Shown here piece by piece: positions 1 to 26,153 of a stretch of DNA of 44,978 nt. The notes under the pieces were generated by a model. The model searched no databases, had not been told where the DNA came from, and saw nothing but the letters and a program-made list of their open reading frames with translations. The position numbers and the translations under genes are program-made. This stretch comes from a virus. Its lineage: Duplodnaviria; Caudoviricetes. The stretch spans positions 1 through 44,978 of IMG/VR virus record IMGVR_UViG_3300002092_000072. One strand, given 5' to 3'. Position 1 is the stretch's first letter, and the number at the start of each line of letters is the position of its first letter.

Positions 1-19
1 CACAAACAAAGGAGTAAAA

Positions 20-130
20 ATGCTGCCACCAGTAGGTTCAGGTAGTACGTCAGTATCGTTAAATGATGTAGCGTTAGAAAGTATCCGTCAAGTTATCCGT
101 GAAGAACTAGGAGCAAAGAACAATGGCTAA
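20..130 (+). CDS. small hypothetical protein (36 aa, MLPPVGSGST...), not in ORF track
   Basis: GGAG at 11-14 before ATG 20; open to TAA 128-130; overlaps next start. Confidence 0.6.
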   Translation: MLPPVGSGSTSVSLNDVALESIRQVIREELGAKNNG

Positions 131-2729: not shown

Positions 2730-2784
2730 TACCCCGTTCTATTTTTAGTTGAGTTTATATTCTATTTACAAAATTGCGTCAGTT

Positions 2785-2811
2785 CACAGAGAAGGTAGTT
2801 CCACCCCTGTG
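2785..2811 (-). terminator. GC-rich hairpin after the 478-aa gene (possible terminator without U tail)
   Basis: CACAGGGGUGG-AACUA-CCUUCUCUGUG pairs using G-U only on the minus strand. Confidence 0.45.
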
Positions 2812-2828
2812 CTAGAGCCTCTTATATA

Positions 2829-4265
2829 TTAAGAGTTTTCTGTTAAATCCTTGATTATCTTGGTGGTCTGTACCTCGTTCAACCCTTCGTTGGGGAGTTC
2901 TTTAAGTACGTTTGCCTTGTCCCCGAAGATAGAACTTAGCACACCTGAAGAGCCCTGTCGCTCCACAGTCATGCGAATAAACTCACGTGAGTCGTCTAAC
3001 TCTTTAACCGTTTTAATCAACTTAAAGAGTCTATCCATCTCTTGAGAGACGTTTGGATCAGCGTATCCACCATTCAATTCTTCAGCGAAACGCATAAAAG
3101 CGACCCTTTGACCCTGCATTTCTATCACAGCATTGAGTAGCCCCTTGAGTTGTTCTTTGGTCTTAACCTCTACTGGTAACTTAAAAGCGCATAAGTTATC
3201 TGGCTTAAAAGCAGGACAGTTGGATGCTACAAAACATGTATTGCAGTTGCGAAGACTGGTCTGTTGAGACTGGACAACTGGCACATCTTTTATGGTTCCA
3301 TCTTGGTCAATTTCGGTAGTTGTGTTGTATCCAAAGACAGGTAAGTTGCCCATTTCTTCTGGACTTCTTGCCTCAAGTTTGCGCACTTGAGGGGGCCTCT
3401 TATCAATATCGGAGGGGGTGCTTTCCCCACTTTGCTCCACATCCATCCCATCGTTGTTAATATATAAGAAGTCATCATTCATACCATTTAACCTCGCTTC
3501 ATACTGTTGGTAAGACCATACCGCTAGACGGCACACTTCCTTTGGATCATCTTCTAGGATCAAATCTACATCTATACCAGCCGCCGTATAAACATGGCGA
3601 TAACGAGATCGTGCTTGATCTTTCATGCGCTTGGGGTAGCGCATAAGTTTAGTGCCATCCCATACAATCGTTTCACCGTTCATCATGGGGCTAAGCCAAG
3701 ACATAGTGCTAGCAGTCTCCGCAGGAACTGACCGCAGGTTATCTGGTTTGGCTGACCCTAGAATATGAAACCTAGTACCTTGACGAGCTAGTGTGCGGGC
3801 TACGGCGGCCATCTGGGTTTCGCTCTCTAACGAATCACCAGGTAAACCTATATCTAAGTACCGCTCTGCCATGGTATTTAAACCTTTAAACCCTGTAGTG
3901 GGGTTCCAGATAGGTAGGAACTTACCTGGTGGAACCTCCGCCCAGCAGGTTCTCCTCTGGTTATCCACATAGGTTTGGTCTTCTACATCTATCTCACTAA
4001 AGGTAGTTAAGCGGCCCATATTCTCCGCAACAAACAACTCATACATCTCGCTGAACTCAGCCAAGTCAAGGTCGTGGTCTTTGGGCAGGCCAGGATGCAC
4101 ATGAATCTGAAAGTGCGGGTCAAAATGGTTCTCTAATAGATACCCTTTTTTAGGCAACCCGCGGCGCAATAAACGGTAGTAACTAAAGCCTACGTGAGAT
4201 GCCCCAGTAGTTTCTAATAAGGTGCGGTTGCTAGGAACCTCTGCGCCTAGGTAGATGATATTCAT
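2829..4265 (-). CDS. two-domain protein: degenerate TGT/DpdA-like barrel plus C-terminal Cys-cluster/helical domain
   Basis: FSYY..., FLPIWN, RFHILG...STMSW pattern resembles phage TGT-like proteins; CNTCFVASNC...C then helical region. CDS is secure, fold is inference. Confidence 0.5.
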   Translation of the reverse strand: MNIIYLGAEVPSNRTLLETTGASHVGFSYYRLLRRGLPKKGYLLENHFDPHFQIHVHPGLPKDHDLDLAEFSEMYELFVAENMGRLTTFSEIDVEDQTYVDNQRRTCWAEVPPGKFLPIWNPTTGFKGLNTMAERYLDIGLPGDSLESETQMAAVARTLARQGTRFHILGSAKPDNLRSVPAETASTMSWLSPMMNGETIVWDGTKLMRYPKRMKDQARSRYRHVYTAAGIDVDLILEDDPKEVCRLAVWSYQQYEARLNGMNDDFLYINNDGMDVEQSGESTPSDIDKRPPQVRKLEARSPEEMGNLPVFGYNTTTEIDQDGTIKDVPVVQSQQTSLRNCNTCFVASNCPAFKPDNLCAFKLPVEVKTKEQLKGLLNAVIEMQGQRVAFMRFAEELNGGYADPNVSQEMDRLFKLIKTVKELDDSREFIRMTVERQGSSGVLSSIFGDKANVLKELPNEGLNEVQTTKIIKDLTENS

Positions 4266-4720
4266 TGTAGACGAGAATCCTCCGTCAAAGACTCTTGCTG
4301 ATAGGTGATCTCATCAACAATATCATTCCAAGGCTTAACGCCTTGCCTGCTATCTGGACGGAACTTCTCTGTAATATAAAGCGGGTGAAGGAACACTAGA
4401 GTAGTTATTCCAGCATTTAATAACTTAGCCGCAAGTTCTGGGTCAGCAGTAACTACCATATCTACCTGCCATTGACCTCTGCAGTACTCTACCTGCCGCC
4501 ATGAAGGGTCTTCGGTAGCAGAAGGTATGTTAGGGTCAATCAAGTCATCTAGAAGGTTAATCTTATTCTCTTTAAGCCAACGATCATCGCGGGCTTTATC
4601 GTTACATAGGATTAAAACACGACCCTTTTCTTTCAGGGTGCGGTACAGGGAAACTCCTTGGGGGATAGGCGCGTTTAACTGGTTACGCAAAACACTATCA
4701 ATAAACATTAACGTTGCCAC
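4262..4720 (-). CDS. HAD-superfamily-like protein with degenerate motif I
   Basis: N-terminal LMFIDSVL (cf. DxDGVL), WLKEN segment as in PNK-phosphatase-like HADs; ATGA-coupled to next gene. Confidence 0.55.
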   Translation of the reverse strand: MATLMFIDSVLRNQLNAPIPQGVSLYRTLKEKGRVLILCNDKARDDRWLKENKINLLDDLIDPNIPSATEDPSWRQVEYCRGQWQVDMVVTADPELAAKLLNAGITTLVFLHPLYITEKFRPDSRQGVKPWNDIVDEITYQQESLTEDSRLQ

Positions 4721-4743
4721 GAATCACATTCTCCAACTACTAG

Positions 4744-4833
4744 TTAAAAAACAGTTATATCTAATACCTCATCTATGCGATCATCTATGCTGTACACAGG
4801 CTCATGGTCACATACACCACAGTCTTTGCACAT
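4744..4833 (-). CDS. 29-aa Cys-rich peptide (MCKDCGVCDHEPVYSIDDRIDEVLDITVF), not in ORF track
   Basis: TAATG overlap with NTase stop; fills the intergenic gap. Confidence 0.55.
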   Translation of the reverse strand: MCKDCGVCDHEPVYSIDDRIDEVLDITVF

Positions 4834-5765
4834 TATTTACGACCACCTAGCGCTCTTCTTACTAGGGTATTAACATCAGGAAGTTCCATGCCGTATGTCT
4901 GCGACTCAAAACTCTTACGCCCTTTAACAGATATGTCTTTTAACTTGCGTAGAGCCTGAACAGTACCAGCTTGTTTGCCTGCTTGCCAGCGATAATTGCC
5001 AATGTCGGAATATCCTCCACCATACTGACTAAAGGCGGTAGTTCTACCTTTATGAATTTCATCAAACAACGCGCTACCTTGTTCAACGGCTAACTTTAGA
5101 GTAGCTTCAGCATTGCGACGAGCATTATCGGTAGTTGATTGACTAATAGCATTTAACGCAGCAGAGTATCTAGATAAAATATCTGTAACCATTGAAGTAT
5201 CTCTTGATACACGTTGATCCCACAATTTGTTATGCGCGGGGGCCTTAACCTCTGGAGATACTGTCCAATCATCTGTAGTCAATGAGTAGGCAGAATAAGG
5301 TTTTATAGAGCGAATGTCTGAAGCAATATTTACATAAAAAGTAAGCTCGTATGTATCTAAGAAGTTTTTAGTCAACGGGTGTAAATCATTGCGGAAGTCC
5401 TCATTAAACATATCTGCAATTTGTTTATCGCTCAACGCTTTATATTCTGGATTAGACTGACGGAACAAAAGGTAATTAACACCTATAAGGCAGTCCAGGT
5501 CAGCTGGATGACGAGCAGCTGTCCACTGGTAGCTCACACCAGAACCAGCTAGCCAAATTGTTAAGTAGTTCTCAGGACTATAATAATGAGTACGTAAATG
5601 CTCTAATAGAATACGCAGAATAGAAGAACGAACAGAAGGAATCAACTTTCCATCGCGGAAAAGACGAGGATCAAGACCCGCCCCAGGTGAACTGAAATAC
5701 GAAGTATCGGAAGGCTCTACTTCTACAGGTGTTGCCTGTGCAACTAGCGCTGAGAAGAAATCCAT
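4833..5765 (-). CDS. DNA polymerase beta-superfamily nucleotidyltransferase
   Basis: WLAGSGVSY...ADLDCLI (GS...DxD) and third acidic residue in YELTFYV. Confidence 0.8.
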   Translation of the reverse strand: MDFFSALVAQATPVEVEPSDTSYFSSPGAGLDPRLFRDGKLIPSVRSSILRILLEHLRTHYYSPENYLTIWLAGSGVSYQWTAARHPADLDCLIGVNYLLFRQSNPEYKALSDKQIADMFNEDFRNDLHPLTKNFLDTYELTFYVNIASDIRSIKPYSAYSLTTDDWTVSPEVKAPAHNKLWDQRVSRDTSMVTDILSRYSAALNAISQSTTDNARRNAEATLKLAVEQGSALFDEIHKGRTTAFSQYGGGYSDIGNYRWQAGKQAGTVQALRKLKDISVKGRKSFESQTYGMELPDVNTLVRRALGGRK

Positions 5766-5772
5766 TTAGTTA

Positions 5773-5979
5773 TTATAGTTCTTTTTCGCGCGGTTCCCTG
5801 TAGATAACATCATAACGCTTCATCTTTTCTTCAGCAGTGTCAAGGAATGGCTTAGTCATAAAGCCACATGCTTGATGCGCATTAACAAATGATTGTGCCC
5901 ATACCATTACTAACGTATCATTATCCGAAGCGTCTGCTTGAAACGATGCTGTGCAGTTGCAAGTCATTTCAATAAACAT
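5773..5979 (-). CDS. hypothetical protein with CxC...HxxC metal motif
   Basis: ORF with AGGA RBS; CNC and HQAC. Confidence 0.7.
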   Translation of the reverse strand: MFIEMTCNCTASFQADASDNDTLVMVWAQSFVNAHQACGFMTKPFLDTAEEKMKRYDVIYREPREKEL

Positions 5980-6008
5980 GGTTCCTACCCTCTAGGCTGT
6001 GTAGTTAC

Positions 6009-6014
6009 AGTATA
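6009..6014 (-). promoter_or_regulatory. -10 element TATACT heading the NTase operon
   Basis: Near-consensus hexamer in intergenic gap about 30 nt upstream of 5979. Confidence 0.5.
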
Positions 6015-6047: not shown

Positions 6048-6596
6048 TTAGTTATAAAGACCCTTAGCCTCATAAGCCCTCTTCTGGTTATACATCTTAA
6101 CAGGGCAAAAGTCGCATAAATGGACTTTTATCGTAGATTTAGCCAGACCAGCTTTAGCGCGGTCTACGTCAGTACCCGCATTTAATATCTTTCGGTCAGT
6201 CTTATAGTCGGGGCATTGTCCTTTAGGACTATTATGAACTTTCCAACAAGACATTGCATCTTGGCTGTACGTATCTTTAAGGCCATAAAAGTTTGTTCCG
6301 AAGACGTCTAAGCCTTGAGCAGCACCTTTACCAAAGAAAGTCTCTCGCAGTTGTTCAACTAAAGACTCTTTAACCTTTGGTGTCATCCAGTGACCTTGTA
6401 AAACATCCATTAAAGGCGCGCCTATATGTTCTGGGCCATGTGCCTCAGCAGCAAGGGTTACAAATGGATTATCTGATTGGTCATACTTACCCTCACCTAG
6501 GTATTCACCTGTTTTGGTGTAGGGGAGTTCTTCAATAGTCTTACACGTTTTACAGACTAGAAGGTTAAATCGCTCGGTCTCAAAGTCATCTGCCAT
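6048..6596 (-). CDS. hypothetical zinc-binding protein, leaderless
   Basis: CKTC...H and C...H...C...CDFC; TGtTAGGCT 6 nt before ATG. Confidence 0.75.
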   Translation of the reverse strand: MADDFETERFNLLVCKTCKTIEELPYTKTGEYLGEGKYDQSDNPFVTLAAEAHGPEHIGAPLMDVLQGHWMTPKVKESLVEQLRETFFGKGAAQGLDVFGTNFYGLKDTYSQDAMSCWKVHNSPKGQCPDYKTDRKILNAGTDVDRAKAGLAKSTIKVHLCDFCPVKMYNQKRAYEAKGLYN

Positions 6597-10907: not shown

Positions 10908-11192
10908 CTAAATGGTGATGACCGTAAGAACCATAGCTGAGATGTCTCCATCGTGGCTCTTAATGGTTGTGAAGCCTGGAACGTATGCAATATCAATACC
11001 TCTAGGCGCGGTGTAACCACGAGCTATCGCTAAGGCTTTTGTGGCTTGATTTACTGCCCCTGCGCCTACGGCACGTACCTTACAGGTACGAGTTTCATAG
11101 ATAGCGTGGGCAATGGCTGAAGCTACAGCCTGTGGGTTAGACCCAGCAGATACGCGTAGTACGTTTTCTTCTTCTTGGACGTGCTCTGTCAT
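10908..11192 (-). CDS. spoVS: SpoVS-family (Alba-like fold) protein
   Basis: LRVSAGSNPQAVASAIA...AVGAGAVNQATKALAIARGY...PGF matches the SpoVS signature. Confidence 0.92.
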   Translation of the reverse strand: MTEHVQEEENVLRVSAGSNPQAVASAIAHAIYETRTCKVRAVGAGAVNQATKALAIARGYTAPRGIDIAYVPGFTTIKSHDGDISAMVLTVITI

Positions 11193-24517: not shown

Positions 24518-25749
24518 AGCGCTAGGTCTTCCTCACTAAGTTCACGGAAAGCTCCAGTGTTCCAGTCCCATAAAAGGTTTGCTTCACTAAGACCTGAGTT
24601 ACGGCTAGCAATAACGCGGAGAGTACGAGTGTCATCTACATTCTCATCTACGCGCTGTAAACCAAAAATAACATCGGCATCTTGGTGGAAAGAAGAAGAG
24701 TAACCAATAGAGTCAGTAGTAACCTGTCCTCCGCGCATCTTCCAAGCAAGTGCTTGAGTAGATATAACAATAGGCTTCTTGATCTTCTGAGCCAGTCTTT
24801 TAAGGGAACGAGTAATATTAGTAATGGCTTGAGGAGTATTTGACTCACCAGTCTGCTCATCAATCATCAAATAAGTACCATCAATAAAGACAATATCTGG
24901 ATCCTTGCTCTGAATCTTGCTTGCTACGGCACTTACAGTCTGACCACCAGTAGAATCCACAAACCAAAACTTATCGCGCATCAAAGGAACACCTTCTGCA
25001 ACAACCTTAATAAGTCTTCCCTCTTCATCTGGAGTTAAGTTACCTGTCATAAAACGTTGGTAAGAAATGCGAGATCGCATACAGTAATAACGGTTCTTCT
25101 GTTCAGTGTTGCTCATCTCAAAGGACATAAACATAGGAACGCTGCCATTAAGGTGACAGTTAATAGCAATCTGTAAAGCCAGAGTTGATTTACCTGTCTT
25201 AGGGGGAGCAACGATTACTACTAGTTGTTCTGGCTGTAAACCTGAGGTAGAGGCGTCAATGGTAGGAAACCCAGTAGCAAGACCAAGCATGCCTGGGTTG
25301 TTCTTACGATACTCATACTCTAGAAGAACGTTAACTGCTTCTTTAGTAATTTCTAAGTCGTTAGAACGAGTTAAACCTTCTTCTTCTAAACGAACAAGTC
25401 CACGCTCCATTGCAAGTAAAGCGCCCTCATGGTCTTGTTCTTTTTCAATAGAAGTAAGAGCACTACCAATAGTTTGAATAATAGATAACTTACGACGGCT
25501 GTCTATAAGGCGGTCAATAAAGTACTCAATAGTATCTTCTACATAAAGAAGTTGATATGTAGGAAAGTTATCTGTAATGATGTCAAGGCTTGGACACTCT
25601 TGGTACTTTGAGTAATGATCGTGTATAAAACGAAAAATCTTTTTATCGTTGTTATCAGCAAACCAATCTTCGGTTACTCCGCGCTCAAGGATAAGACCGA
25701 CGCTTCGCTCTTCAAGAACTTTGCTTAGTAGTTTTGCTTCGTTGTTCAT
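24514..25749 (-). CDS. dnaB: DnaB-like replicative helicase
   Basis: TGF.TID...GLQ, APPKTGKST, SFEMS, FIDG.YLM, QDAD. Confidence 0.93.
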   Translation of the reverse strand: MNNEAKLLSKVLEERSVGLILERGVTEDWFADNNDKKIFRFIHDHYSKYQECPSLDIITDNFPTYQLLYVEDTIEYFIDRLIDSRRKLSIIQTIGSALTSIEKEQDHEGALLAMERGLVRLEEEGLTRSNDLEITKEAVNVLLEYEYRKNNPGMLGLATGFPTIDASTSGLQPEQLVVIVAPPKTGKSTLALQIAINCHLNGSVPMFMSFEMSNTEQKNRYYCMRSRISYQRFMTGNLTPDEEGRLIKVVAEGVPLMRDKFWFVDSTGGQTVSAVASKIQSKDPDIVFIDGTYLMIDEQTGESNTPQAITNITRSLKRLAQKIKKPIVISTQALAWKMRGGQVTTDSIGYSSSFHQDADVIFGLQRVDENVDDTRTLRVIASRNSGLSEANLLWDWNTGAFRELSEEDLAL

Positions 25750-26153
25750 AAGTTATTGAAGTCCAATCCCCAATGTCCGTATCTTAATATATTACTTGGT
25801 ACATCTATAACACCAATAACTTCTGGCCTATAAGGAAGTTCTGTCATCAAATGATTAATTGATTCGTACGAAGAAGAGTATCTAAACGGATTAGTTCCTA
25901 CCGTGTCAAGATAATCCATTGACTCAGATAACTGCTCGTCGTTTAAAGTGTATGAGACTAATTCTAAAGTAACACCTCGGTTAGTTGTAAAAAGATACAG
26001 AGCACTCAATATGTCGCGCCGTAATTTTTTTTCAACGCTGGGTACAGGAAAAACCTTTAAACGTTTTTTAATAGTAACTTCTACGATCATAAAGATGTCC
26101 ATCACTACTAATACCCGTTGCGGTATCTCGTTACTTATATCCCCATTACGCAC
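25746..26153 (-). CDS. hypothetical protein, possibly degenerate HAD-like fold
   Basis: Coupled ORF; alpha/beta pattern ending VIGVID. Confidence 0.6.
   Translation of the reverse strand: MRNGDISNEIPQRVLVVMDIFMIVEVTIKKRLKVFPVPSVEKKLRRDILSALYLFTTNRGVTLELVSYTLNDEQLSESMDYLDTVGTNPFRYSSSYESINHLMTELPYRPEVIGVIDVPSNILRYGHWGLDFNNL

Follow-up and report, generated by a model that had tools for sequence, protein, structure and literature searches.

The window analysed here is the whole stretch of 44,978 nucleotides (nt) of the IMG/VR virus record IMGVR_UViG_3300002092_000072, and covers 45 kb of a record of the myovirus-like type; sheath, baseplate, polymerase, RecA, WhiB-like and RuvC-like open reading frames (ORFs) were recognized in it by eye. 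Five closely packed ORFs (68, 310, 29, 152 and 478 amino acids, aa) occupy positions 2829-5979 on its minus strand. They encode a 68-aa accessory protein with CxC and HxxC motifs and no family (5773..5979), a 310-aa nucleotidyltransferase (NTase) of the Pol-beta superfamily (4833..5765), a 29-aa CxxCxxC accessory peptide known from its ORF call (4744..4833), a 152-aa PNKP-type HAD-like protein (4262..4720) and, overlapping the latter gene by 4 nt, the 478-aa protein that is our main subject (whole gene, 2829..4265). Residues 1-262 of this protein (3480..4265) form a barrel of the TGT/DpdA type, and residues 330-478 (2829..3278) comprise a zinc motif, two long helices and a conserved tail. An earlier note on this DNA had described the packed ORFs, the TATACT hexamer before them and the adjacent nrdJ gene, which lies downstream (708-2729, assigned by family searches), and all of these were recovered, as were the overlaps of the ORFs.

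A model of the 478-aa protein was built from 125 aligned rows (mean pLDDT 83, mostly above 92 in the barrel). Its five top VIA matches were all of the TGT family, namely aTGT (Z 16.7), DpdA (Z 16.4), Cap10 (Z 15.4), QTRT2 (Z 14.5) and bTGT (Z 14.3); other barrels ranked lower (Z ≤13.3), and Foldseek was concordant with the TGT family. The TGT/DpdA-like layout proposed by the earlier note was thus borne out, with TGT-family barrels returned first by the structure searches. The match to DpdA of S. Montevideo (PDB 7UI4) covered residues 1-264 only, and the barrel region also matched phrog_887 (E 3e-45). When family profiles of the 478-aa, HAD-like and NTase proteins were run against PDB sequences, no significant match emerged, and no Pfam family scored above cut-off for any of the three (of 49 NTase rows, 11 gave a weak DUF6932 match). 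For the 478-aa protein, the Atlas search returned unnamed viral clusters only.

According to PMC10164549, Asp95 and Asp256 of DpdA are essential, and mutation of either abolishes base exchange. In the 478-aa protein, the corresponding columns are occupied by H57 and S186, as mapped through an alignment with Bacillus phage BCD7 and strand position rather than by residue-level superposition. The VHPG and STMSW motifs, which had been read as replacing DSG and DSxSW, were present; their counterparts in the alignment are DSG and DSTTW/DSVTW, as seen in BCD7 and in Bacteroides phage BS162P1. Asp was found in the nucleophile column in only one of the 125 rows, where Ser, Ala, Thr or Gly made up 103 with no consistent substitute, whereas BCD7 carries Asp; the loss of the nucleophile thus extends across the family. 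The acid/base column retained Asp in 71 of the 125 distant rows and in 5 of 74 closer loci, and is His in the window protein. W190 was invariant in the family, and residues 181-260 were well conserved.

The absence of 7-deazaguanine synthesis genes, claimed for the window, also held in relatives: QueC, FolE and QueD, the three pathway proteins searched for, were found in none of five relatives of 94-100% completeness, with control genomes positive. Because the nucleophile is lost and these five relatives lack QueC, FolE and QueD, it is very unlikely that the 478-aa protein still functions as DpdA, a conclusion that we hold with high confidence. The missing pathway alone is no proof of an inactive DpdA, since in PMC6884629 one phage with DpdA only was unmodified and another contained trace dADG.

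The conserved part of the protein that the earlier reading had left aside, residues 331-460, points to DNA packaging. Residues 331-425 are its best conserved stretch (tail score 0.57 versus 0.38-0.53 elsewhere). They include a four-Cys zinc motif, in which C341, C344 and C350 are invariant and C359 is present in 124 of 125 rows, and two helices (370-397 and 404-425) that are confident in the model. A viral fold search with the protein retrieved the 'terminase small subunit' of Gordonia phage Jumbo (E 4e-8, TM 0.29). Jumbo gp6, Demosthenes gp9, Kampe gp9, GordTnk2 gp1, Mbo2 gp1 and Reynauld gp14 are each encoded directly before the large terminase (TerL), as is a split form, ReqiDocB7 gp1 and gp2, with a boundary similar to that in BS162P1, where the tail is a separate gene. 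This family comprised 116 phage records, and in all seven siphovirus records opened for gene position the gap to TerL was 0-72 nt.

Profile comparison by HHalign paired the tail with the tail of the TerL-side proteins at 96.6% (E 5e-10) and the barrel with their N-domain at 59.6%, while crossed pairs gave 0.3-0.5%. Among the controls, 25 column shuffles gave at most 1.0% and the reversed profile 1.9%; the helices without the Cys motif gave 47%. Demosthenes gp9 additionally matched phrog_887 (E 3e-4). These profile data show strong homology of the tail, and weak homology of the barrel, to the products of genes that immediately precede TerL. The TerL-side proteins of Gordonia, Rhodococcus and Tsukamurella phages (phrog_6902 and phrog_16015; Jumbo gp6, Demosthenes gp9 and GTE7) share the Cys motif and hairpin and match weakly in the N-domain; they differ in their position before TerL, in barrels that are far more eroded, and in having no HAD or NTase relative by tblastn. 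The helical hairpin followed by a C-terminal strand-like segment presumably fits the layout of small terminases. Stand-alone tail proteins were also considered and set aside, as the matches were mostly near-identical short proteins, probably contig-end fragments.

Intein-like inserts, recognized by their terminal motifs rather than by a profile scan, were found in 4 of the 150 representatives listed (P0298, P0326, P0334 and P0335), at three sites (C344, C359 and T199). The ORF at L109:6518-8716 combines a barrel of the intact type with an intein-like insert inside its DS-TTW motif. Inteins favour essential genes. Together with the conservation of the tail and its homology to the TerL-side proteins, the inserts suggest that the protein is essential and that its ancestral role was not enzymatic.

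The closest guides to this ancestry lie in two other phages. BCD7 gp021 (phrog_887, 757 aa) has the same two-part layout and SpoVS-side position as the 478-aa gene; unlike it, gp021 keeps DSG and DSxxW and follows queD, queE, queC and folE. In BS162P1, barrel and tail are encoded by adjacent genes (00087/00088), again on the SpoVS side, and this pair, unlike the 478-aa locus, keeps DSG and DSxxW and has queC-like and queE-like ORFs nearby (by eye). The SpoVS-family gene (10908-11192, minus strand in the window; Pfam E 3e-27) keeps its place ahead of the DpdA-like gene in these two phages as well and is a deep synteny marker. The likely ancestor of the lineage is an active DpdA in two parts, which BCD7 has as a fusion and BS162P1 as separate genes, both with que genes, and after loss of the pathway the protein would have been kept for a non-catalytic job. 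With its two domains, the 478-aa protein is a new form of long-form DpdA whose catalysis has been lost, and it connects DpdA with the large proteins that occupy the TerS position in actinobacterial siphoviruses.

Full-length orthologues (32% identity) occur in cultured phages as BRock gp36 and GiJojo gp181, with NTase and HAD-like genes upstream and Ser at the nucleophile position too. BRock differs from the window in keeping the first Asp (DSG), in one gene inserted between the HAD gene and gp36, and in carrying 29 tRNAs; its genome has a terminal repeat of 221 bp. These orthologues are annotated 'queuine tRNA-ribosyltransferase' and 'dpdA-like', and supplement file 7 of PMC6884629 (Hutinet 2019) enters BRock gp36 among the DpdA proteins that lack the pathway genes, and BCD7 gp021 among those that have them. 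The enzyme labels on gp36 and gp181 are probably wrong. BCD7, BRock and BS162P1 are not named in the one supplement file of PMC10516641 that was searched.

We tentatively read the 478-aa protein as a small-terminase-like packaging factor that uses a dead DpdA barrel to bind DNA, at rather less than even odds. The zinc-and-helical-hairpin tail is predicted to form an oligomer, the barrel likely binds phage DNA without excising a base, and a packaging factor of this kind would contact TerL. The NTase and HAD-like genes would be co-transcribed, lineage-specific additions, without sign of action on the 478-aa protein. In GiJojo, no small terminase is annotated in the stretches read. A literature search with limited coverage of subscription papers returned no report tying this family to terminases.

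Several observations weigh against packaging. The 'terminase small subunit' label in Gordonia phages rests on position and sometimes on similarity to like labels (PMC4524720); no experimental support for it was found in the literature searched, PMC4563357 offers only a figure abbreviation and pac-type ends for such a label, and many TerL-side records call the protein hypothetical. The 478-aa gene lies about 30 kb from TerL in the complete relative G001 (35351 versus 65222) and is also far from it in GiJojo and BCD7. An unrelated helical ORF of 80-94 aa is located directly before TerL in five of five freshwater relatives (G001-G005) and in GiJojo. Solved small terminases were absent from the structure match lists of the 478-aa protein, which barrel matches filled, and residues 429-454 of the tail are of low confidence in the model. 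A small terminase gene adjoining TerL is usual, not universal. Given the positional Gordonia label, the distance of the gene from TerL in this clade and the rival ORF that precedes TerL, packaging is offered tentatively and another DNA-binding role is given real, if lesser, weight.

That other role is unlikely but worth serious consideration: the 478-aa protein would be an essential non-catalytic DNA-binding factor acting, for example, in late transcription or as a replication/recombination scaffold, and the ORF before TerL would be the real small terminase. The candidate (G001:C1:64827-65105, that is L124:1052-1330; GiJojo L105:24025-24309) stands out by position and conservation, occurs in all six clade genomes checked and is unrelated to the tail. 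In GiJojo it is unannotated, an opposite-strand gene overlapping its end having been called instead, and it has no PHROG or Pfam match. Very short small terminases are known, and judging from its placement this ORF could be the true one. The 478-aa gene, moreover, ends the replication/recombination arm (RuvC, SpoVS, nrdJ), and its Gordonia homologue is also the first gene of a rightward arm, a place fit for a regulator. The proximity of the siphovirus homologues to TerL in the seven records argues in the opposite direction, as does the fact that, when the eight ORFs preceding TerL were compared in BCD7 and BS162P1, none was found to be related to the small ORF.

The earlier note had proposed instead that an active NTase and two binding-only partners, the HAD-like and TGT-like proteins, form one complex, for which linkage in relatives is informative. 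Of 8000 candidates scored against the 478-aa protein, 1659 were hits, with 788 representatives at the 50% identity level, and at least 456 confirmed IMG/VR stretches encode the family, of which the best 80 of 456 were examined. Two of 104 loci were dropped because the gene was cut, and 77 distinct sequences remained, 64 of them with at least 6 kb upstream as the linkage set. Gene order was conserved: of these 64 loci, 62 carried the HAD-like gene, 61 the NTase gene and 61 all three genes together. Relatives of the 68-aa gene were found at 40 loci and those of the 29-aa peptide at only 4, an inspection by eye showing the peptide in 5 intergenic gaps. Unrelated upstream genes were equally linked, encoding proteins of 182 aa (62/64), 120 aa (62/64), 77 aa (59/64) and 179 aa (59/64), and nrdJ followed the 478-aa gene in 55 of 62 loci. 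As the whole arm is colinear, the linkage of the trio mostly reflects descent. The block belongs to the conserved core of the BRock-like myoviruses, whose cultured members are the Streptomyces phages BRock, GiJojo, LuckySocke, Alone3 and pSt2308.

Among 50,697 records, NTase and HAD-like relatives were confined to the BRock-like cultured Streptomyces phages (6 records each), while the 478-aa family was wider, reaching BCD7 gp021 and BS162P1, in which no HAD or NTase relatives were detectable. In L018/L019, the 478-aa and HAD-like genes were present and the NTase was not found (record 72% complete). The trio is therefore separable. The HAD-like gene is the most tightly attached, abutting or overlapping the 478-aa gene (gap ≤5 nt) in 56 of 69 loci and kept in L018/L019, so that these two proteins are the likeliest binding pair, if any; insertions of about 0.4-1.4 kb separate the unit genes in several loci.

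The NTase itself retains the claimed GS...DLD...E triad in essentially all sequences: G74-S75, D89 and D91 were invariant in 72 of 72, and E140 was present in 71, with one Asp. Its model (13 rows, pLDDT 84.9) shows a minimal NTase core (about 32-164) and a three-helix bundle (178-292). Foldseek matches were weak and mostly to Pol-beta NTases (best E 0.02, none at E ≤0.001), including CdnE (E 0.02, TM 0.22). The core gave weak but consistent fold matches to MNT proteins (1YLQ, Z 6.5; 1NO5, Z 5.8) and shares their GS/DxD/E triad; the window protein differs in its fused bundle. This MNT/aminoglycoside-transferase-like layout suggests that the NTase is probably active and attaches a nucleotide to the hydroxyl of a protein or an RNA. 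A CNOT3/Not5-like bundle was rejected, its Z of 8.2-8.8 being within the range of any helical bundle, and the nucleotidyltransferase gp015, encoded near gp021 in BCD7, belongs to a different family (phrog_388/RlaP-like).

In the HAD-like protein (F6-I7-D8), F6 aligned with the nucleophile Asp, in agreement with the reading of FID in place of DxD. This column held F in 46, Y in 8, S in 5, Q in 2 and N in 2 of 68 rows (the five commonest residues), and the second Asp, D8, was kept in 60 of 68. HHalign paired the protein with the phosphatase domain of GiJojo PNK at 65% and with a HAD-like ORF of G001 at 78%, with five controls below 2%, and Atlas leads of 0.84-0.87 were to HAD families. The HAD identity thus stood as a PNKP-type pattern with the nucleophile lost; compared with PNKP-type phosphatases, the protein also lacks a kinase domain. 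On the loss of this residue, it is likely a non-catalytic binding partner. The 135-aa ORF at 25746-26153 did not match the HAD-like profile and was rejected as a relative. The complete relative has another HAD-like ORF (G001:C1:54721-55077, L131:14721-15077), in which DxD is replaced by DLN.

The genes of the unit share a predicted promoter, as judged from positional conservation of the -10-like TATACT hexamer (6009..6014, minus strand). Of 69 loci (distinct NTase sequences, kin to each other), 56 had such a hexamer in the 60 nt that precede the 68-aa or the NTase gene, compared with 171 of 3450 random 60-mers (5%), with a pattern fixed after inspecting the sequences and at most two windows per locus. 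The same pattern preceded the HAD gene in 8 and the 478-aa gene in 3 of the 69 loci, and the window site was absent from the output of the consensus promoter scan.

One complex of NTase, dead HAD and dead TGT for tRNA repair or tagging, protein nucleotidylation or a signal remains improbable in our judgement, and it is unsupported beyond this co-transcription. The single promoter, the tight HAD/478-aa junction, the co-occurrence of all three genes, the PNKP type of the HAD and a type IV CBASS precedent speak for it: one of the best fold matches of the barrel is Cap10-CdnD (9NTN), whose entry title pairs Cap10 with an NTase of the Pol-beta type, and Cap10, like QTRT2, is a TGT fold employed outside the classic tRNA reaction. 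The linkage, however, is no tighter than that of unrelated neighbours, insertions interrupt the unit, the 478-aa family occurs without the other two proteins, and the conserved tail is left unexplained. Unlike type IV CBASS, the window unit has no QueC/Cap9 for a CBASS-type modification and no effector (none was recognized in the block, in a scan that did not include the PADLOC library), and its NTase matches CD-NTases weakly. The tRNA repair option is further weakened by the lack of tRNA genes in the window and in the complete G001; maturation of phage tRNA therefore cannot be the general role of the NTase, though host tRNA may be a substrate. The literature search described above returned no description of the trio. 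Least probable of all is a barrel that remains enzymatic but has altered chemistry, for example as a hydrolytic glycosylase or as a DpdA working on host precursors: the acid/base Asp of many rows, invariant W190, conserved residues 181-260, one intein at T199 and the published listing of BRock gp36 would fit, but the nucleophile column has no consistent substitute and the window protein lacks both Asp residues, each of which DpdA needs for exchange.

The hairpin that the earlier note had taken as the end of the unit exists (about 2767-2826), but it is modest (z -2.4; 6 of 200 shuffles equally good), was not called a terminator in the window scan and has no U tract. It lies in the spacer to nrdJ (2730..2828, minus strand), which has a -10-like TATATAA/TATCAT element at its start, and the hairpin shares sequence with a TATCAT/TATAAT-like element that recurs ahead of nrdJ. 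Judged by eye, the spacer folds of relatives had no structure in common. Because the hairpin is weak, lacks a U tract and overlaps this element, the spacer is more likely a promoter or leader of nrdJ than a terminator. The operon cannot be called self-contained, since the 182-aa and 120-aa genes are equally linked and no terminator precedes nrdJ. The spacers of the window and its relatives share a recurring short palindrome at TATCAT/TATAA and GGAAC...TGAAC...TAAACTA words, and may hold a promoter with a regulator site. Upstream of the unit's promoter, the 182-aa Cys/His-rich protein (6048..6596, minus strand; no Pfam or PHROG family) has conserved CxxC...H and C...H...C...CxxC sets, possibly two zinc sites.

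Near TerL, a KTSC-domain gene is found two to three genes upstream across the clade (G001:C1:63994-64581, that is L132:3994-4581, Pfam E 5e-10; BS162P1 00016 by eye). A QueD-like ORF in BS162P1 (00017, L137:8805-9341, by eye) overlaps the probable TerL start, far from the other que genes, and is another contact of the 7-deazaguanine pathway with packaging genes. In the window (1-44978, both strands), CCGG is absent against about 133 expected and TCGA against about 79 expected, and G001 lacks CCGG and GATC; this strong restriction-site avoidance points to host enzymes. It was rejected as a sign of unprotected DNA and does not discriminate, because the BCD7 and BS162P1 stretches with intact DpdA motifs also avoid palindromes. 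No one-strand desert of CTY was seen in the window (15-66 per kb).

A broader version of the packaging reading is doubtful. It would posit a widespread small-terminase class in myoviruses and siphoviruses with a DpdA/TGT barrel as its DNA-recognition domain. A BCD7-like barrel would still be an active insertase fused to a packaging ring, coupling hypermodification to genome selection; in the actinophages, the enzyme would be dead and the reader kept, regulated by the NTase and dead HAD through nucleotidylation.

PHROGs, RefSeq and one published table carry the 478-aa family under the names DpdA or queuine transferase, and PMC10516641 proposes DpdA as a signature of 7-deazaguanine-modified phage DNA. 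Because the nucleophile is almost always lost among the 125 aligned representatives, DpdA predictions for this family mislead. The NTase represents a large uncharacterized family (1483 hits) with an intact active site. If the 478-aa protein is a packaging factor, the fold of a base-modifying enzyme would have been recruited into the packaging machine, the large 'small terminases' of Gordonia phages would gain an origin, and DNA modification in BCD7 may be tied to packaging.

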